From: Candidatus Woesebacteria bacterium RBG_16_42_24
Lineage (GTDB): Bacteria > Patescibacteriota > Microgenomatia > UBA8517
NCBI GenBank assembly: GCA_001792115.1
Contig: MGFX01000001.1
Location: 240,606 to 304,605, forward strand
Length of the DNA: 64,000 nucleotides
Direction: 5' to 3'
The notes below the pieces were generated by a model. It was not told where the DNA came from. It made no database searches and was given only the letters and a program-made list of their open reading frames with translations. Of this stretch, positions 39,126 through 47,805 are shown piece by piece. Positions within the stretch are counted from its first letter, which is position 1. The number at the start of each line of letters is the position of its first letter. Both the position numbers and the translations under genes were made by a program.

Positions 39126-39422
39126 ATGAAGTTAATTTTTGATCCTAGGGCTGAAAAGTTCCTGGATAAAATTAGGGACAAAGAAAGAACAAAGGTATTT
39201 GAATATATTCTTTTATTCGAGGAATACGGATTTGAACTTGATAACAGATACCTTAAGAAGGTAACGAAAAATATTTGGGAGTTAAGGCCTAAAAATATAA
39301 GACTATTTTTTATCAAGAGAGCCACAAATTATTTAATCGTTCACGCAATGTATAAAAAATCCCAGAAAATAACCAAGAAAACGCTAAAATTGTTAGAAAA
39401 AAGAATTAAAAGTTACCTATGA
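39126..39422 (+). CDS. RelE/HigB-like (Gp49) toxin
   Basis: YLKKV..NIWELRP..IRLFF, H...KKSQK; upstream of an HTH gene with 4-nt overlap. Confidence 0.85.
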   Translation: MKLIFDPRAEKFLDKIRDKERTKVFEYILLFEEYGFELDNRYLKKVTKNIWELRPKNIRLFFIKRATNYLIVHAMYKKSQKITKKTLKLLEKRIKSYL

Positions 39423-39730
39423 AAGCAAAAAAAATAGACACATCGAAATTCATTACTTTCCACGAGCTTAGAAGAAAGTGGATGAAAGATCCGGAGTTTG
39501 TAAGGGAGTGGGAAAAGTTAGAGCCCCACTATCAAATAGCAAGACAAATGGTTGGGGCCAGAATCAAAAAGAAAATGTCCCAGGAGGAACTTGCCAAAAA
39601 AATTGGAACCGGGCAGGCGGTAATTTCAAGACTCGAAGGAATGAATGCCAAGCCATCAATTTCACTTTTGAAAAGAGTTGCCGACGCATTGGACACACCA
39701 ATAAAAATAACAATTAACCCCGATCGGTAG
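39419..39730 (+). CDS. HigA-like XRE antitoxin
   Basis: MSQEELAKKIGTGQAVISRLE, PSISLLKRVADAL. Confidence 0.88.
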   Translation: MKAKKIDTSKFITFHELRRKWMKDPEFVREWEKLEPHYQIARQMVGARIKKKMSQEELAKKIGTGQAVISRLEGMNAKPSISLLKRVADALDTPIKITINPDR

Positions 39731-39788
39731 GCCATTCTAGATTCTGGCAACTTTAGCTTCAACCTCGGGAAAGTAGTAGAATATCCAA

Positions 39789-40415
39789 ATGCTAGTTTTT
39801 ATCGATGATTCCGGCGACCCCAGTCTAAACATAGAAAAAGGAGCAAGTAAATTTTTTGTTATCTGTTGTGTTGTGTTTGATGATGATTTGGAGGTTGAAA
39901 AAACGGCAGTTGCAATCAAAGAGCTAAGACGAAAACTCAAGTTTTCCGATAGAGTTGAATTTAAGTTTAACGGGTCCAGTTTTAAAACACGTATTGCCTT
40001 CCTACAAACCATCAAACTATTTTCATTTAAGATTCGAGCCCTGGTTGTGGACAAAAGAAAAATAAAAAGTGACCAATTAAAAAATGATAAACAATCTTTT
40101 TATAGCTACTTTATCAAAATGATCCTGCGATATAGTGGGGGGTCAATCGTTAATGCAAAAGTAAAAATAGACGGAAGCGGGGACAGAATATTCCGTAAAA
40201 GATTTCTAACGTATCTAAGAAAAGAACTTAATAGTAAACAAAAGAAAATTGTGAAGAATGTTAGATTGGTTGACTCTAAAACCAATGTATTAATTCAAAC
40301 TGCAGACATGGTTGCAGGTACAATTAGAAGGTACAAAGAAAAAGAAAAGTTAGATGCTCCCAAATACTGGAATATTATAAAAAATAAAATTGATGACTGT
40401 TGGGATTTTAAGTAA
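39789..40415 (+). CDS. DUF3800-family protein (RNase H-like acidic motifs)
   Basis: FIDDSGD at N-terminus, EFKF, VDSK..VLIQTADMVAG. Confidence 0.8.
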   Translation: MLVFIDDSGDPSLNIEKGASKFFVICCVVFDDDLEVEKTAVAIKELRRKLKFSDRVEFKFNGSSFKTRIAFLQTIKLFSFKIRALVVDKRKIKSDQLKNDKQSFYSYFIKMILRYSGGSIVNAKVKIDGSGDRIFRKRFLTYLRKELNSKQKKIVKNVRLVDSKTNVLIQTADMVAGTIRRYKEKEKLDAPKYWNIIKNKIDDCWDFK

Positions 40416-40419
40416 GCAC

Positions 40420-40448
40420 AAAAAAATCCCAAATTTCTTTGGGATTTT
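40420..40448. terminator. Bidirectional-looking intrinsic terminator
   Basis: aaaatcccaaa-tttc-tttgggatttt with an A-run on the left. Confidence 0.7.
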
Positions 40449-40525
40449 CCGACCACGTCTCTAGACGGGTAGTTCCCGACACGCCACCATCCGGTAACAG
40501 TTCGAGATACAGGTCTTTGTATCTA
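40420..40525 (-). ncRNA. Candidate small RNA convergent with DUF3800 gene 1
   Basis: Minus-strand TTGACA-16-TATATT (40555-40528), internal hairpins including CC-GGAU-GG, and an intrinsic terminator at 40420-40448. Confidence 0.55.
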
Positions 40526-40658
40526 TGAATATACTAAATTTGGTATATTTGTCAACCCCGATTCCAAAACCTCCCTCTTTCTATGCCCTCAGCACTGTGT
40601 ACTAAGACTATGTTATGAACTATGCTCTATGCGCTATCTATAGTAGAATACGGGCAGA

Positions 40659-41474
40659 ATGAAAAAGCAAAACAGCACCCCCAAACTTCTTCCGGAAAAA
40701 GTAATTAGACCCCGGGTTTCTCCCGAGGAAGTCGGTAGGTACTATCTGAAATCAGAATTAGGACGCATCTTTCCTGGACAAAAAGAGATTAGGGAAAATC
40801 TGGACAGAAGGATTGATAAACTCGATAGCTTTGAATTCTGGAGACTCCTTCAGGCTCTATCCTTCGCCTACAGATTAAATTATATATTTCTTTTCGTGGG
40901 AAATTCCGGTTATTCATGGAGCGAGGAGACATGGCGTATTTCGCGCCTCACACTTACTGGGATAAACCCCGACATAAATGCAATCACTTTTTCCCCCGAA
41001 ATTAGTAGGTCTCCTATCAAATTTCGCGATTTTCTTAAGAAATATTTTGCCGATCACCCCCAAGACGATCCTCAGAAGCTTAATGAGTTTCGCCCGAGCC
41101 AAAGGCCCATTGACTACCCCAGGATAATATTAAGGGAAGACGAAGCTAATATACTTCTTCTGGATGGATCAAATAGGCTAATTGAGCTAATGTTTAGACA
41201 AGAGGAGGAGGTAGTTGCTTTTATCGGCAGAAAGAATGGTAAAAAGGAGAAATTTAGAATAGGAGATAGCACCTTCTTACTTTTGAGAAATCTTTATGAA
41301 AAAGGGGATTCCCAGGAGAGGCGTGCGGTGTTAAAGGTTGTAAAGATGCTTTTGGGCATAAGCCTGGATGGCAGACGGGCGGTTGAGAATTACTGGGTAA
41401 GACATCCTCGTGACGAAAAGCTAAAGGCAGTCGGCCGAAGCCTATTAAAAGCACATACTTCTAAGTCGACATAA
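40659..41474 (+). CDS. Hypothetical protein with a ParB/Srx-like motif
   Basis: PRIILRE...LLLDGSNRL resembles the ParB DGxHR motif. Confidence 0.5.
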   Translation: MKKQNSTPKLLPEKVIRPRVSPEEVGRYYLKSELGRIFPGQKEIRENLDRRIDKLDSFEFWRLLQALSFAYRLNYIFLFVGNSGYSWSEETWRISRLTLTGINPDINAITFSPEISRSPIKFRDFLKKYFADHPQDDPQKLNEFRPSQRPIDYPRIILREDEANILLLDGSNRLIELMFRQEEEVVAFIGRKNGKKEKFRIGDSTFLLLRNLYEKGDSQERRAVLKVVKMLLGISLDGRRAVENYWVRHPRDEKLKAVGRSLLKAHTSKST

Positions 41475-41580
41475 CTTCCAAATCTTACCTTCCCTATGCA
41501 CTCTGATCTATGTACTAAACACTAATAACATTCTGGCAACTTTAGCCTTAACTCCGGAAAAGTGCTAAAATGCGGGCCAA

Positions 41581-42216
41581 ATGGCATATATTTTTCTCGA
41601 CGAATCGGGTGACCTAGGATTTAACCCCAAAAAGAAAAGTTCAAAATATTTTGTAGTAACGGTTTTGACTACATCAGACAAGAAACCCATAGAAAAATTA
41701 GTTAAGAAGGTTCATTCTAAGCTGAGAAAGAAAATAAGAAAGTTAAGTGGAGGCATTCTCCACGCCTATAAAGAGAAACCTTCCACTAAAAAAAGGATCC
41801 TTTCCGGCCTTGCTGGTATTGATTGTCTAATAATGGCTATTTATCTAAACAAATCAAAGGTATACACCAAACTGAAGGAAGAAAAACATATTTTATATAA
41901 CTATGTGGCCAATATTCTTTTAGATAGGATTATGAGAAAACGATTTACTTTCTCAAGAAGCAAAATATTCTTAATTGCCTCCAAAAGGGAGACTAACAAG
42001 TTTTTAAACGAAAATTTTAAAAACTATCTCAAAAATCAGGTATCAAATAGGCATAAAGTAGATATGGCAGTAGAGATAAAAACCCCAGCCCAAGAAAGGT
42101 CTTTGCAGGCAGTCGACTTTGTATCCTGGTCGATATTCAGAAAATACGAGCATGGAGACGAAACCTATTATAATTTGATTAAGAGCAAGGTAATTGAAGA
42201 AAATTCTCTCTTCTAA
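41581..42216 (+). CDS. DUF3800-family protein
   Basis: IFLDESGDLG at N-terminus, SLQAVDFVSWSIFRKYE. Confidence 0.82.
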   Translation: MAYIFLDESGDLGFNPKKKSSKYFVVTVLTTSDKKPIEKLVKKVHSKLRKKIRKLSGGILHAYKEKPSTKKRILSGLAGIDCLIMAIYLNKSKVYTKLKEEKHILYNYVANILLDRIMRKRFTFSRSKIFLIASKRETNKFLNENFKNYLKNQVSNRHKVDMAVEIKTPAQERSLQAVDFVSWSIFRKYEHGDETYYNLIKSKVIEENSLF

Positions 42217-42218
42217 AA

Positions 42219-42285
42219 CGCAAAACCCTGTGCGCTATTTCTGAGCAACCATCCGGAAGCCCACGCACAAGGATTTACTTGCAAC
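42219..42285 (-). ncRNA. Candidate small RNA convergent with DUF3800 gene 2
   Basis: Minus-strand TATAAT (42295-42290); long stem enclosing the same CCGGAUGGU hairpin; a G-U pair works only on the minus strand. Confidence 0.5.
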
Positions 42286-42410
42286 CCCTATTATACATAG
42301 CTGTCAAGTCATTTACCATACCCTCTAAACCTGAATCATAAATCTAAGTTCGTTTGCTTTCCCTGGCAAATTTAGCCTCAACTCCGGAAAAGTGCTAAAA
42401 TACGGGCAGG

Positions 42411-42779
42411 ATGCAGAAGAAATATCGCATTGGTGAAATTGCCGCACTTACAGAAAAGATCAAAAAGTTTAGAGATGAGCGGGATTGGAAACAATTTCAT
42501 AACCATAAAGATATGGCGATTTCCCTCGTTTTAGAGGCTACGGAAGTTTTAGAACACTTTCAGTGGAGAACTCCAGAGGAGGGTGAGGAACGGGCAAGAA
42601 GCCATAAAGAAGAACTCGCGGATGAACTGGCAGATGTAACCTATTTTCTCTTCGAACTTGCCGACAACCTCAAAATAGATTTAGGTAAGGCTTTAATTTC
42701 AAAATTAGAAAAGAACGTAACTAAATATCCTATAGAAAAATCAAAGGGTAAAAATTTAAAATATACGGAATTAAAATAA
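42411..42779 (+). CDS. MazG-like nucleotide pyrophosphohydrolase
   Basis: FRDERDWKQFH, EATEVLEHFQW, DELADV, N..KYP. Confidence 0.9.
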   Translation: MQKKYRIGEIAALTEKIKKFRDERDWKQFHNHKDMAISLVLEATEVLEHFQWRTPEEGEERARSHKEELADELADVTYFLFELADNLKIDLGKALISKLEKNVTKYPIEKSKGKNLKYTELK

Positions 42780-42928
42780 ATAAACTGACCTCTTTGTAAA
42801 AATAGCCCCAAACCTTCTGGCAAATTTAGCCTTAAGGTCTTCACTAAAGATTCTGGAAAAGTGATAAACTGACCATTGACAATATTTCTAGATTTGAATA
42901 AATTGTAATAACCAAATAAAACCCGAAT

Positions 42929-44125
42929 ATGGATACTGTTCTAATTCCGACTACTCATATTAAAAGTACATACGAAGAAGTTCCAATAACCAATTTTTCA
43001 TCTATAAATTCCAACACCCCGTTAGATTCGTTAAATTTAAATTGGAGGGAAAGAGACCTTCCGGAAAGAACTAGAACTAAGCACGTACATAGACTTCACC
43101 CGTATTTAGGTAAGTTTATCCCCCAGCTCGTAGAAATTTTTTTAAGAAAATACAAACCTAAACTTGTATATGATCCTTTCGTGGGCAGTGGTACAACCCT
43201 GGTGGAAGCAAATACGCTTGGCATTGATTCGGTGGGAACCGATATTTCTGCTTTTAACATTTTACTTTCAAAAGTAAAAACTGATAAATATAACATCCCG
43301 GCCTTAGAAAAAGAGGTTAATGAAATCTTGCGAAGATTGTCTTTGTATAAAAGCAAATTTTCAAAGGACGAGAAAGTAAACAAATTATTTCAGACAGATA
43401 ATCCTTATATTCACGAGTGGTTTGCACCAAACACCCAGAAAGAACTGCTTTGTTATTTAAGATTGATAAAAGATTATACCTATCAGGATTTATTAGAGAT
43501 TATTTTGTCCCGCGCTGCCCGTTCTGCCCGTTTGGTTACACATTATGATTTAGATTTTCCGAAGAAACCCCAGACGACACCTTACTTTTGTTATAAACAC
43601 AGAAGAATATGCAAACCAACAGAAGAAGCATATAAATTTTTATATCGGTATACTATTGACACTCTGCAAAGAATAAAAGAATACGCAAAAATTAAAACGG
43701 GCGCGAAAGTGGTTTTGAATCATGGCGATTCTAGGGAAGTAAAACTACCGAAGGGAATTGATATGGTTTTTACCTCACCGCCTTATATAGGGCTTATTGA
43801 TTACCACGAACAACATAGATATGCATATGAATTTTTAGGTCTAAAAAATAATGAGACAAAGGAGATTGGGCCTGCGAAAAAGGGCCAATCTGATCAAGCA
43901 AGAAAAGAGTATATGAAAGGGATAAATGATGTATTGTTACATACCCGTGATTATGTCGCTAAGGATGGGTTGGCAATTATTGTGGTAAATGATAAATTTA
44001 GACTCTATGCACCTGAAGAGGTGGGTTTTAAATCTGTTGGCAAAGTGGAAAGACACGTCAATAGGCGCACCGGTAGAAGAAATGGTGCATTTTATGAAAG
44101 TATTTTAATCTGGCAAAAAACATGA
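42929..44125 (+). CDS. Type II amino-DNA methyltransferase, probably m4C
   Basis: HPYLGKFIPQ, motif I DPFVGSGTT, motif IV TSPPY. Confidence 0.9.
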   Translation: MDTVLIPTTHIKSTYEEVPITNFSSINSNTPLDSLNLNWRERDLPERTRTKHVHRLHPYLGKFIPQLVEIFLRKYKPKLVYDPFVGSGTTLVEANTLGIDSVGTDISAFNILLSKVKTDKYNIPALEKEVNEILRRLSLYKSKFSKDEKVNKLFQTDNPYIHEWFAPNTQKELLCYLRLIKDYTYQDLLEIILSRAARSARLVTHYDLDFPKKPQTTPYFCYKHRRICKPTEEAYKFLYRYTIDTLQRIKEYAKIKTGAKVVLNHGDSREVKLPKGIDMVFTSPPYIGLIDYHEQHRYAYEFLGLKNNETKEIGPAKKGQSDQARKEYMKGINDVLLHTRDYVAKDGLAIIVVNDKFRLYAPEEVGFKSVGKVERHVNRRTGRRNGAFYESILIWQKT

Positions 44126-44958
44126 CAAAAAAAGAAGAAATGAAGAAAGCCATCCAGTCTGTCATCAAATCGATGATGGATGGAGTTATGAATAAGGTAT
44201 TAATTGAAGATCCTTTCATTGCGGAAAACCATAAAGCCAAAAAACCGCTATATGCAGCACTTGTTCCTGATGAAATTTTTAAAGGATCTCATTTTGAAAG
44301 AAGATTTGTAACTCCTTTCGGAAATGCCTGGGAAGAACTGGCAATCGTTGCGGCTAATCAGGGCCTTGGTTTTGGGGAAAGAGCACACAGTATAACAGGG
44401 AGAATAAATGCAGAAAGATTGCGTAGAATTCAACAAATATTAAACACTCTTGAACACCCGGAAAAAGGGAAGAAGAGAATTAAGCCCAATTGGACGCAGG
44501 AACTTAAATATGTTTTGGAAGGCAAGAGTCCTAAGGTCGTTCCCACAACTGTTGTTTGTGACATTTATGTTGAAGATAGAAAAATCGACAAAAAGTATAC
44601 GTTTGAATTAAAAGCACCATTGCCCAATAGTGACCAAACAAAAGTCAGTAAGGAAAAGCTTTTAAAGCTATATAGCATGGATCCATTGGAAATTGATGCT
44701 GCTTATTATGCCTTACCTTATAATCCTTACGGCAAACGAGATGATTACTCCTGGAGCTTCCCTGCGCGCTGGTTCGATATGAAAAAGGATGAAGTTGTGC
44801 TAATCGGAGACGAATTTTGGGAAAAGATAGGAGGAACAGGCACCTATACAGCATTTATAAATGCTGTAAATGAAATTGGTAAAGAGTATAAAGATAGAAT
44901 CTATAGAGAATTTTTAGGTATAGAGCCACCAAGCTCTTTAGCGATGGTCAAGCTTTGA
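44122..44958 (+). CDS. Type II restriction endonuclease, TdeIII/MjaII-like
   Basis: ERRFVTPFG..WE, D...FELKAPLPN, PYNPYG, GDEFWEKIGG; overlaps the MTase stop. Confidence 0.75.
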   Translation: MTKKEEMKKAIQSVIKSMMDGVMNKVLIEDPFIAENHKAKKPLYAALVPDEIFKGSHFERRFVTPFGNAWEELAIVAANQGLGFGERAHSITGRINAERLRRIQQILNTLEHPEKGKKRIKPNWTQELKYVLEGKSPKVVPTTVVCDIYVEDRKIDKKYTFELKAPLPNSDQTKVSKEKLLKLYSMDPLEIDAAYYALPYNPYGKRDDYSWSFPARWFDMKKDEVVLIGDEFWEKIGGTGTYTAFINAVNEIGKEYKDRIYREFLGIEPPSSLAMVKL

Positions 44959-45075
44959 ATAATTCTTAAGCTTATCCAAAAAATTAAAATTTGACCTTTG
45001 AGAAATTTGCGTACGATAATCGTAAATTTGAAGCTAGCTTATATTTTATTCATCAACAAATAAAAGTCATACCAG

Positions 45076-45104
45076 TTGACAAGCCTTTCTATCGGTGATA
45101 GATT
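45076..45104 (+). promoter_or_regulatory. sigma70 promoter of the retron locus
   Basis: TTGACA (45076-45081), 17 nt, TAGATT (45099-45104). Confidence 0.7.
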
Positions 45105-45109
45105 GAAAA

Positions 45110-45688
45110 GTGGAGGATGTAATTCCTTTCCGCTCTTTTAAATCTCACCCAGCTATCAATTAACCCTATCGCTCTATAAATGAGCAAACCAGCTTGTCTG
45201 GTTACTTATGGTGTCTGGAAAGACACCGCAGAGGTTTCGACCTCTGCCTTTTCAGGGGCCAAATATGGCACTCTGGAGAAAGTTATCGTTGATATCCGTG
45301 TAACCTCCTAGAAGAGGCACGTATAGCGACTTGTGCAAAGAAGTTTAGGATTGATCCAGTTTTTTCCTGCAGAGGGCCAAATTGAGGCACATGGTATCTG
45401 CAATACGAAACCATGTTAGACCGAGGTGAGTATTATGAAAAGAGTAAAATTAGACACGATTGTCGAATTCTTCGACAGTCTAGTTTCGGAAGAAAGGCTG
45501 GATCTTGAAACTAGGGGCCAAATAGCGAAAGCTATTAAAGATCTTTCACACGGTTTAGCTATAAAAGACCTGAAACAGGTAAGCAAAGCTGTGGATAGAT
45601 TGTCAAAAAGCCTGCTCAATAATACGTTTCGATCCTAAGCTTTCTTATAAGGTTCCAAACTGGTGCTTTATAAGAGAGCTTAGTTTTT
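45110..45688 (+). ncRNA. Highly structured retron-associated RNA overlapping a small ORF (ncRNA/mRNA hybrid candidate)
   Basis: Back-to-back hairpins, e.g. ggtgtct-GGAA-agacacc 45210-45227, gcagaggt-TTCG-acctctgc 45228-45247, aatagc-GAAA-gctatt 45521-45536, 18-bp stem 45635-45683. Confidence 0.7.
45435..45638 (+). CDS. Small helical protein embedded in the retron RNA, putative effector
   Basis: SD GAGGTG 45423-45428, ATG 45435; 67 aa, amphipathic helices. Confidence 0.65.
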   Translation: MKRVKLDTIVEFFDSLVSEERLDLETRGQIAKAIKDLSHGLAIKDLKQVSKAVDRLSKSLLNNTFRS

Positions 45689-45695
45689 GGCAATC

Positions 45696-45992
45696 ATGAA
45701 TTACGGAAAAGCTATTAAAATATTGCGAAGCGCCAAGAATCTTGAACAACAAGAGCTTGCCAAGAAAATAGGCCTTGATTCTAGCTACATTTCTTTAATT
45801 GAAAATGGTAAAAGAAAACCAAGTCCAAAAACCATTGAAAAAATTTCAGAAAGCTTGTCTATTCCTAAACACCTGTTGCTACTTCTTGCTTCCGATGAAA
45901 AGGATTTGAAAAACGTTCCAAAAAACGAGTCCGCAACAATTGGAAAACAATTGTTAGAAATTCTTATTTCCTCCCAGAATGTCGGGGCATGA
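45696..45992 (+). CDS. XRE-family HTH protein of the retron locus
   Basis: GKAIKILR...QQELAKKIGLDSSYISLIENGKRKPS; overlaps the RT start. Confidence 0.9.
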   Translation: MNYGKAIKILRSAKNLEQQELAKKIGLDSSYISLIENGKRKPSPKTIEKISESLSIPKHLLLLLASDEKDLKNVPKNESATIGKQLLEILISSQNVGA

Positions 45993-47004
45993 ACACCAGC
46001 TAAATATCCCAAGTCCATTTCCAATTTTATCTGTCAATAAATTGGCGTTTATATTAAGAACAAAGCCAAATGAATTAAAGAAATTATCAGAAAACGCCGG
46101 AAACTACTATACCCCATTCGATAGGAAACAAATCAAAGATAACGGAAAGGTAAAGTGGCGGCATATAGATAATCCTGCACCTAAACTTAAGAAAATTCAG
46201 CAAAAAATTAATAGGGTACTTCTGAAGGCTAAGGTAGAGTCGTTGCCAACCGGTATGACTGGGGGTATTAAGGGTAGATCAATTTTTACGAATGCCGCCC
46301 AACATCTTAATCAAAAAGCTGTGGTGACCATTGATTTGAAGGACTGTTTTCCAAGAACCAGTAACAAGCGAATTTTTAGAGTCTGGAGAAACCATCTGGG
46401 TACCAGTGAATGTGTAGCAAATATACTGACAAAGTTAACTACATTTCAGAGAAGATTGCCTCAGGGTTCCCCCACAAGTTCCTCGTTGTGTAATCTAGCG
46501 CTCTTTCCTCTTTTCAAAAAGACAAAAAGGTATTGTCAAAAAGAAAAATTCAACCTAACGTTGTACGTAGACGATATCACTATATCTGGCCAAACTATTC
46601 CGATACGACTCGCGATTGGAAGAATTATAAATTTCATTCAAGAAGAGGGTTATGCTGTCAGAAGGAACAAGATAAAAATTATGACGGCAAGTGTTCAACA
46701 AAAAACGACCGGATTAATTGTCAATAAACAATTGTCAGTTTCTGCAAAAGCACGTGAGGAGATTCGAAAAGAAATATTTATTTTATCAAGACAAGAAATG
46801 TTTTCCTCTAAAAGAATGAGATCTCTTTGGGGTAAAATTAATTACATTAAGAAGGTTTCACCAAAACAGGGGGGGAAATTAGCCAGCTTAGCACACACTC
46901 TTTTGTTGGATACACTAGCGTCTCATAGTTATGAAAATGTGACTTCGGAGAAGGAAGTGACAAGAGAGTGTAAAAATACAAGAAGACATAAATATAGTCT
47001 ATAA
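45979..47004 (+). CDS. Retron-type reverse transcriptase
   Basis: NAAQH (retron region X NAxxH), DLKDCFP, LPQGSPTSS, YVDD, TTGLIV (VTG-like region Y); 341 aa, no maturase or endonuclease domain. Confidence 0.9.
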   Translation: MSGHEHQLNIPSPFPILSVNKLAFILRTKPNELKKLSENAGNYYTPFDRKQIKDNGKVKWRHIDNPAPKLKKIQQKINRVLLKAKVESLPTGMTGGIKGRSIFTNAAQHLNQKAVVTIDLKDCFPRTSNKRIFRVWRNHLGTSECVANILTKLTTFQRRLPQGSPTSSSLCNLALFPLFKKTKRYCQKEKFNLTLYVDDITISGQTIPIRLAIGRIINFIQEEGYAVRRNKIKIMTASVQQKTTGLIVNKQLSVSAKAREEIRKEIFILSRQEMFSSKRMRSLWGKINYIKKVSPKQGGKLASLAHTLLLDTLASHSYENVTSEKEVTRECKNTRRHKYSL

Positions 47005-47112
47005 AAACTGGTTGAGTATTTTTTTTGATATAATTCTTTTGATGTATAAACCTTCGCCATACTTTCCAGAAATCTTGCTATAATCTTCTCATGAAGCAGA
47101 CAGAAAATATCA

Positions 47113-47178
47113 ATGACTATCAACAAAAAATGGCATTTGGAAAACAGGATGCCTGAAAATTTGACCCCATGGTTTTAG
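47113..47178 (+). pseudogene. Possible truncated gene remnant (MTINKKWHLENRMPEN...)
   Basis: Protein-like start that ends shortly after an aaatttgacccc motif, followed by 7-mer repeats. Confidence 0.25.
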
Positions 47179-47345
47179 TGAATCGTGAATAGTGGCTAGT
47201 GATTGGGTTATATTCGCTAAAAATCAATTTTACTACCCCAGCGCTTTATGTATGATAAGATGATATATCATACACAGATTTGATTCAATTCAAAATTATT
47301 CAAAATCGATTAAATTTTCCACCTCGGAGGTGGTATAATCCTGAT

Positions 47346-47591
47346 ATGAGCGCTAATAAATTAGATTATTTGATAAAATTAACCTACGACAAGGACTATA
47401 AAGGTTATGTGGCCGACGTAGTGAATCTGTATGGCTGTATGTCTCAGGGAAAGACAAAGAAAGAGGCTCTGGAGAATGCTGAAAAAGCCATAAAAGCCTA
47501 CATGGAAGCAGTTGCTAAAGAAGGAAAAAATATAGAATTTACCAAAAGAGCTGTAGATATAAACATTCCCCGCTCGTTAGTTAATGCCTAG
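47346..47591 (+). CDS. HicB-like antitoxin
   Basis: GYVADV..L.GCMSQGKTKKEALENAEKAI; TATAAT 47334-47339 supports ATG 47346. Confidence 0.88.
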   Translation: MSANKLDYLIKLTYDKDYKGYVADVVNLYGCMSQGKTKKEALENAEKAIKAYMEAVAKEGKNIEFTKRAVDINIPRSLVNA

Positions 47592-47805
47592 ATTTGCTAA
47601 TATCTCCGGAAGAAAAGCTGTCAAAGCATTTCTGAAATTTGGCTACGTCCACAGTCACTCCTCCGGCGATCATGCAATTCTTCAAAAGAAAGGCGCACCT
47701 ACCTTATCGATCCCATTACACAAGGAGATAGCTCCGTTTTTATTAAAGTCTCAAATTAAAAGAGCGAATATTAGGCCCGATGATTTCCTGAAAGCTTTAA
47801 AATGA
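47584..47805 (+). CDS. HicA-like mRNase toxin
   Basis: KFGY.....GDHAIL, SIPLHKEI...LLKS. Confidence 0.85.
   Translation: MPRFANISGRKAVKAFLKFGYVHSHSSGDHAILQKKGAPTLSIPLHKEIAPFLLKSQIKRANIRPDDFLKALK

Follow-up and report, generated by a model that had tools for sequence, protein, structure and literature searches.

In canonical retrons a long-range stem, the a1/a2 inverted repeat, joins the two ends of the ncRNA and closes the msr-msd domain. The two described systems closest to the locus reported here differ in how they control their small protein (SP). According to the main text on Retron-Vpa2 (Zhang et al., 10.1101/2025.10.22.683967), SP is translationally repressed and msDNA releases its translation. 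A 7-nt direct repeat is proposed there as the key, and the published fold corresponds to the one called set B below. That text thus describes retron DNA as turning on toxin translation and leaves open which RNA elements are responsible. For Retron-Sen3, a member of the cl2075 lineage (Garcia-Rodriguez et al., 10.64898/2026.04.27.721009), the main text places the RBS in a basal stem, describes a 5' stem-loop and presents the pairing of two inverted repeats, IR1 and IR2, as an alternative. Tagged Sen3 SP is made without infection and the HTH protein is the antitoxin, i.e., a basal stem and an alternative fold are drawn and control was found at the protein level. The same text lists a Levybacteria member among previously tested retrons. 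In both main texts, a RecC-containing complex is tied to activation (10.1101/2025.10.22.683967; 10.64898/2026.04.27.721009).

The idea of a toxin released by RT-DNA is not new, since it is the published mechanism of Retron-Vpa2, and the lock logic is already in print for Type VI retrons. What is new here is a concrete two-fold model. No switch model was found in the main texts of the Vpa2 and Sen3 papers, and no other paper on a Type VI mechanism was found in the literature searched, most subscription journals lying outside its scope.

The retron locus and its host

The window, i.e., the whole stretch of 64,000 nucleotides analysed here, carries a Type VI retron at positions 45076-47004, with ncRNA, small ORF, HTH gene and RT in that order. 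The SP gene (45435..45638, + strand) encodes 67 aa, the XRE-type HTH gene (45696..45992, +) 98 aa and the gene for the retron reverse transcriptase (45979..47004, +) 341 aa; the HTH and RT genes share a 14-base overlap. The best PADLOC family of the RT is RT_VI (E 1.4e-77; next family 2.8e-57) and that of the HTH protein, which also matches Pfam HTH_3, is HTH_VI (E 6.7e-24). These matches support the retron identity proposed in the first-pass annotation, which a model had made from the sequence alone. Retron RTs are marked by the motifs NAxxH, YxDD and a VTG-like motif. The RT of the window is intact with a YVDD active site, and the residues N105, A106, H109, D198, D199, T244 and G245 are conserved in an alignment of 28 sequences, with TTG standing where VTG is expected. 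Judged from RT clade, HTH gene, gene order and RT motifs, the locus is a Type VI retron.

The SP has a predicted fold of three helices (pLDDT 81.6) and is likely a toxic effector, judging from gene position only. It had no match in Pfam, PADLOC or a PDB fold search (E<=0.001), and its weak fold matches to bundles of three helices, among them the DnaK lid, carry no meaning. The library model SP_VI did not match the window SP and touched one of 30 members of the SP family (E 0.027). This miss does not exclude Type VI membership, since the main text of the Sen3 paper places SPs of the 'Large' lineage, that of Vpa2, outside the defined clusters. SP length is 67 aa here, 55 in Vpa2 and 79 in Sen3, as given in the main texts. 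A GTG start at 45426 was rejected because it lies within the SD, whereas the ATG at 45435 suits both spacing and homologs.

The retron is flanked by a Type II restriction-modification pair and a HicBA pair. Positions 39126-47805 of the window form a defence island with two DUF3800 genes, a MazG-like gene, a methylase, a TdeIII-like nuclease, the retron and HicB-HicA; a DUF3800-IX RNA match (40447-40515, - strand) accompanies the two DUF3800 genes. The host genome has 873 kb and is 98% complete, and a search of it found no member of the RecC family. It encodes a single AddA-like 991-aa protein that combines UvrD and PD-(D/E)XK (G000:C1:213783-216674), and this helicase-nuclease is a candidate for the target under the retron's surveillance here. 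Among named relatives of the RT, the best two belong to Candidatus Woesebacteria. The RT family is patchy: in the class, 6 of 400 genomes have it, and in the order 3 of 139, the host's own being counted in both. One relative, P0002, is a 435-aa HTH-RT fusion, 73% identical to the RT of the window and either a natural fusion or a frameshift. A quick RT tree, which omits seven of the 50 loci introduced below for want of a full-length RT, splits the group of the window from five plasmid and phage loci (support 91).

Architecture of the leader RNA

Transcription probably starts at ~45111-45112, as judged from a conserved sigma-70-type promoter (45076..45104, +; -35 at 45076-81, extended -10 at 45097-45104). 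This promoter is a 10/12 match, in a scan that finds no excess of sites over shuffles (12 vs 11.8). The -35 hexamer is identical in the four relatives' rows that cover it, and the T, A and T of the -10 box are invariant in 5/5 rows. Downstream follows a 5' stem-loop (45113..45128, +), which is present in MFE and centroid folds, was seen by eye in relatives and has a probability of 0.2-0.3 in the longer fold. According to the Sen3 main text, an essential stem-loop occupies the matching position in Retron-Sen3.

Directly behind this stem-loop lies the 5' arm of the basal helix P1 (45132..45149, +), which is both anti-start and anti-SD strand and opens with a conserved GnnCnTTnA motif. The 3' strand of P1 (45423..45445, +) consists of the SD (45423-29), the spacer, the AUG at 45435 and codons 2-4. 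Nested inside P1 is P2, whose 5' strand (45152..45167, +) pairs in the predicted folds with 45373..45388 (+) at a probability of ~0.8. Folding and relatives point to four short conserved, msr-like hairpins (45168..45247, +), followed by a variable structured region (45248..45340, +). This region is the least conserved part of the leader and, by comparison with the Vpa2 and Sen3 papers, a candidate RT-DNA template. The first copy of the direct repeat GAGGCAC (45314..45320, +) lies inside it. The second copy (45384..45390, +) overlaps the outer end of P2 and is where the RT-DNA is predicted to land. A hairpin at 45389..45416 (+), located between P2 and the SD, has a probability of 0.87-1.0 and is kept in relatives.

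Two further helices cross P1 and P2. The 5' strand of P3 (45353..45367, +) pairs with 45488..45504 (+) within the coding sequence of SP, and the 5' strand of P4, or IR1 (45341..45354, +), pairs with IR2 (45629..45642, +) past the stop codon, a pairing found by inverted-repeat search and in relatives. A long 3' hairpin (45635..45683, +), whose core is conserved on both arms, overlaps IR2 and is the likely end of the hybrid RNA. It extends to the HTH start region and could mark where the RNA ends, act in priming or serve as an HTH operator. No branching G after P1 or P2 was invariant in 17 loci, and no Rfam family was found over the ncRNA.

The basal helix P1

The first-pass annotation had drawn a long-range helix between 45133-45149 and 45425-45444. 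Both strings are found at these positions, and a hand count gives 17 possible pairs, with U45431, A45435 and G45437 as single-base bulges. The fold of 45105-45690, suggested there as a check, contains P1 in its minimum-energy and centroid structures, as does the fold of 45105-45460. Pair probabilities are 0.99-1.0 at 45133-35 and 45144-49 and 0.6-0.96 between. As had also been proposed, P1 closes the whole multi-hairpin domain: the 45105-45460 fold has a z of -5.1, which 0 of 100 shuffles equal. The annotation was right about the SD, four of whose six bases (45425-28) are paired, but less so about the AUG, which is mostly unpaired and enclosed by helices. In the preference of the folding model, A, U and G sit in a 1x3 internal loop with unpaired probabilities of 0.94, 0.79 and 0.83. 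Taken at this locus alone, the P1 duplex is borderline against shuffles (p = 0.08 with 100 shuffles, 0.043 with 300), and the support for it comes from the homologs discussed below.

A local pairing of the same arm with 45106-45114, which had been named as a competitor, fared badly: it reaches -7.3 kcal/mol vs -14.2 for P1, and the pairing probability is <=0.05 for 45106-11 and 0.10-0.31 for 45112-14. As a switch partner this segment was rejected. Its A-run is lost in 4/4 close relatives, and most of it lies upstream of the likely transcription start (~45111-12). Folding of the growing RNA suggests that P1 is complete once 45430 has been transcribed, before the partner strands of P3 and P4 exist.

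For a 28-base ribosome footprint at the SP start, the predicted cost of opening is 11.7 kcal/mol when the RNA is full-length and 16.2 when it is nascent; it is 5.6 if the arm is blocked and 4.9 if set B (P3 and P4) is forced. For 54 of 440 host genes, taken in random order, the median is 7.3 kcal/mol; seven of the 54 reach 11.7, and one reaches 16.2 in the geometry matching the nascent form. The nascent form was harder to open than set B in 17/17 hand-picked and 16/18 other loci, a comparison of truncated RNA with constrained full-length RNA. The HTH start costs 10.0 kcal/mol as well, so a high opening energy need not mean repression. The SD of SP is complementary to the tail of the host 16S rRNA, in which the anti-SD is present. 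SD-like 4-mers before 441 crudely called host genes are not enriched (12% vs 10-11%), i.e., SP has a strong SD in a host without SD enrichment. Prediction and co-evolution, and only these, suggest that RNA structure hides the RBS and start of SP.

P1 in related loci

A search with an RT alignment yielded 95 loci, whereas a scan with the single RT found none. Among the 96 loci that include the window's own, 85 have an HTH match and 67 an SP of this family with a start call. Subtracting ten duplicates and eight loci with <400 bases upstream left 49, to which one was added; the resulting 50 loci are related and not independent. L103 duplicates L002, and L101 and L102 are without an SP of this family. 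Eight further loci (L006, L007, L077, L012, L079, L082, L083 and L094) are Type VI-like, with HTH and RT genes and small ORFs of other families, which escape the SP profile.

In an unanchored comparison, the zone at -370..-270 paired best with its own start region in 9/50 loci, with a median rank of 8 (control medians 28.5 and 16.5). In an alignment of 17 loci, 54-59% of the P1 cells are paired and the register slips between loci. Since column-wise counts understate P1 under such slippage, we chose a test anchored on the GnnCnTTnA motif. This motif, read off the alignment, occurs at -375..-265 in 35/50 loci, compared with 6 and 7 in control windows. The arm anchored in this way ranked its own start region first in 16/35 loci and among the top three in 23/35, with a median of 2; three control targets gave medians of 15, 17 and 23. 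For the 18 loci outside the hand-picked set, the own start region ranked first in 6/18, with a median of 3 (control 6.5). SD plus spacer contribute the main part of the signal (median 5), the first codons a smaller share (median 9). L029 (1340-1700) and L088 (1605-1970) have no recognisable SD, and in both the arm still ranks its own start region first of 35, which argues that the lock follows the start and not the SD alone.

Other measures are weaker. The P1 duplex reaches p<=0.05 in 8/49 loci individually (controls 7/98), long-range SD pairing of >=0.5 occurs in just 12/49 full-length folds, and the SD half of P1 has no two-sided change among five close loci. The covariation asked of homologs by the first-pass annotation is seen in the preference of the arm for its own start region. 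Its wider proposal, that a helix conserved in homologs hides the start region, is supported by folding and co-evolution. From these comparisons we conclude that P1 is real and co-evolves with the SP start region, but loosely. The first bases of the arm (45132-45140) are conserved in sequence, as GnnCnTTnA in 35/50 loci, while their partners vary; they are possibly a protein-binding or priming site.

Two crossing helix sets

P1 and P2 form set A, P3 and P4 set B, and the two sets cross. P3 came to light in a window pair that had been intended as a control. A blind map of zone pairs found P3 in 37/50 loci and P4 in 25/50, where chance is ~5 and background 2-13; P1 reached 14/50 and 12/50 in two adjoining cells, barely over that background. 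P3 is 98% paired in five loci and 86% in 17, with 11/12 pairs changed on both sides, and P4 is 93% paired in five loci and 84% in 17, with 8/9 pairs changed on both sides. For P2, 79-87% of cells are paired and three two-sided changes occur in five close loci, falling to 50-65% paired in 17 loci. Sliding the partners by 1-3 columns cuts the pairing of all four helices together from 87% to 39-54%. By this sequence comparison, set B is better conserved than set A, and the true competitor of P1 is 45341-45367 with 45488-45504 and 45629-45642.

We read the two sets as alternatives, since full coexistence of helices this long would be improbable without threading; pseudoknots are outside the scoring of the folding program. 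Set A is favoured by 7-11 kcal/mol at this locus. In this locus and its four closest relatives, full-length RNA retains P1 at a probability of 0.92-1.0, with a preference of 3-14 kcal/mol for A. The 17 hand-picked loci have a median A/B difference of -0.7, nine favouring A and eight B, and among 18 other loci B is favoured in 15, with a median of +5.4 kcal/mol. Four proteobacterial Type VI loci (plasmids and a phage) all have the repeat and P4, three of the four have P3, and P1 is weak in them; a fifth locus gave no SP call.

The direct repeat

The two copies of the 7-base direct repeat link the variable candidate template (45314-20) with the outer end of P2 (45384-90). Repeats of at least 7 nt join the same two zones in 36/50 loci, against 7.3 expected and 8/50 in control windows; the zones were picked after a first inspection of the repeats. 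The repeat sequence varies between loci and matches within each locus. At this locus, copy 2 is unpaired at 0.11 in set A and 0.73 in set B, and the median exposure across loci is 0.37 in A and 0.72 in B. Occupying copy 2 moves this locus by 5.6 kcal/mol towards B. In the 17 loci the median shift is 2.0 kcal/mol and exceeds 1 in 10/17 (controls 2 and 5), with L084 having taken a wrong motif, and the favoured fold is altered in 2/17. With copy 2 alone blocked, P1 still has a probability of 0.87 at this locus. In the weak predicted fold of the RT-DNA, the key lies in the stem and not in the loop.

The first-pass annotation had also suggested that reverse transcription itself might open P1. Blocking 45250-45335 leaves P1 at 1.00, and this direct route is unlikely because neither P1 strand lies within the candidate template. 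The modelled effects of the repeat instead point to P2, the neighbour of P1, as the probable place of attack.

Separately, a 12-base direct repeat connects a leader hairpin (45254-45265) with the SP coding sequence (45513-45524; shuffle p 0.0065), and a third copy of nine of its bases lies at 45374-45382. In L058 it comprises 14 bases (p 0.0005), with the same two substitutions in both copies. It is weak in L018 and L017, absent in L084 and not family-wide. It might be a second DNA landing site or stem from RT-DNA copied into the gene.

Discussion

We propose that P1 is a basal stem that locks a probably toxic SP until retron DNA tips the RNA into a second fold, a reading to which we give a probability of about one half. 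P1 and P2 would close as the SD emerges from the polymerase, keeping SP untranslated. By analogy with Retron-Vpa2, the RT would copy the variable region on infection, and the RT-DNA, carrying the complement of the repeat, would bind copy 2 and strip the outer end of P2. The RNA would then shift to set B with its more open start, SP would be translated and the cell would arrest. On this analogy, it is plausible that the toxin is held untranslated until RT-DNA accumulates.

The comparison with Vpa2, as described in its main text, reveals a common plan. Both loci have the order ncRNA-SP-HTH-RT and a single structured RNA that holds both template and toxin gene; in both, RBS and start are hidden in RNA structure, the 3' end pairs back and a 7-nt direct repeat connects template and regulatory arm. 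The dependence of SP translation on RT-DNA was shown in Vpa2 and is proposed here. Both repeat copies lie in loops in Vpa2; here the exposure of copy 2 differs between the two sets (0.11 in A, 0.73 in B). The Vpa2 RBS sits in local stem-loops of one fold, and neither a long-range 5' arm nor an alternative fold or switch is named in the main text; Supplementary Fig. S4 of that paper, with the covariance model and the repeat sequence, may already show P1 or the repeat. The host here also differs from that of Vpa2, being a small-genome patescibacterium in which RecC was not found.

The main text on Sen3 describes other features of this locus: a basal stem, closed by a 5' and a 3' inverted repeat, that hides the RBS, a small stem-loop just upstream of the 5' repeat and an IR1-IR2 pairing across the SP gene, called an alternative conformation. 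In Sen3, SP is made constitutively and HTH neutralises it, the RBS is in a stem in both conformations, and that text mentions no direct repeat or switch. Here, unlike in Sen3, the stem extends over the AUG and first codons, and a more open second fold is predicted. The complex monitored by Sen3 is RecBCD, whereas RecC was not found in the 98% complete genome of this host. P1 also resembles the canonical a1/a2 stem in joining the RNA ends over a long range, but the effector's translation start serves as its 3' arm, there is a second helix set that crosses the first, and neither P1 nor P2 is followed by an invariant branching G.

The superior conservation of set B also fits a different order of events, in which P1 would serve as a temporary safety catch, keeping ribosomes off the nascent transcript until synthesis has reached the 3' strands of P3 and P4. 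Once mature, the RNA would rest in B, other stems or an RT-HTH complex would repress SP, and RT-DNA would act on the exposed repeat. This agrees with the completion of P1 before the partners of P3 and P4 exist, with the preference for B in 15/18 unselected and 8/17 hand-picked loci and with the greater exposure of copy 2 in B (0.72 vs 0.37), which matches the description in the Vpa2 main text, where the helix corresponding to P4 is likened to a priming stem. Against it stand the window locus and its four closest relatives, which keep P1 at 0.92-1.0 with A favoured by 3-14 kcal/mol. Set B would also be a poor lock in these five loci, since the start is easy to open there (4.2-7.9 kcal/mol). We consider such a transient role unlikely. 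P1 as a stem required structurally, for folding or for binding of the RT, while SP is made anyway and held in check by HTH as in Retron-Sen3, appears still less probable to us. Sen3 shares the basal stem, the 5' stem-loop and the IR1-IR2 pairing, and its main text describes constitutive SP with an HTH antitoxin. The sequence conservation of the first bases of the arm is what a protein-binding site would have, and the HTH start is hard to open too (10.0 kcal/mol). However, a purely structural stem would have no need to sit on the start, and the arm tracks the SD, spacer and first codons of each locus, even in L029 and L088. Moreover, the Vpa2-type repeat is kept here, and the Sen3 main text mentions none.

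The pairing might also be a by-product, in that a pyrimidine-rich stretch in a 300-base leader would match any purine-rich SD. The single-locus p of 0.04-0.08 and the weak signal of P1 in the blind map agree with this. The motif, however, fixes the arm at a single place, the arm favours its own partner above the partners of 34 other loci with similar SDs, and pairing drops when the partners are slid by 1-3 columns. Already largely refuted by the motif-anchored test, this explanation is very improbable.

The lock proposed above can be taken further, to a two-state switch triggered by DNA, in which an OFF fold of P1 and P2 and an ON fold of P3 and P4, nearly equal in energy, would be flipped by binding to the repeat. 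We put this forward tentatively, as possible if somewhat doubtful. Equally tentative are two of its parts: a 5' end that imitates the 16S tail and wraps the SD and first codons of the toxin co-transcriptionally, and an ON fold in which the leader is paired with the coding sequence and the 3' end of the toxin itself.

Because the co-evolving helices and the repeat are defined exactly, and each can be broken and restored, the release step left open so far is directly testable. The trigger may differ in this organism, since its small-genome host hardly uses SD signals and seems to be without RecBCD. If true, the switch would supply the missing step in toxin release by msDNA and would reconcile the differing folds drawn for Vpa2 and Sen3. 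It would also be a regulator of natural origin, made of RNA and with a DNA copy of that RNA as its ligand, and as such a useful sensor part.
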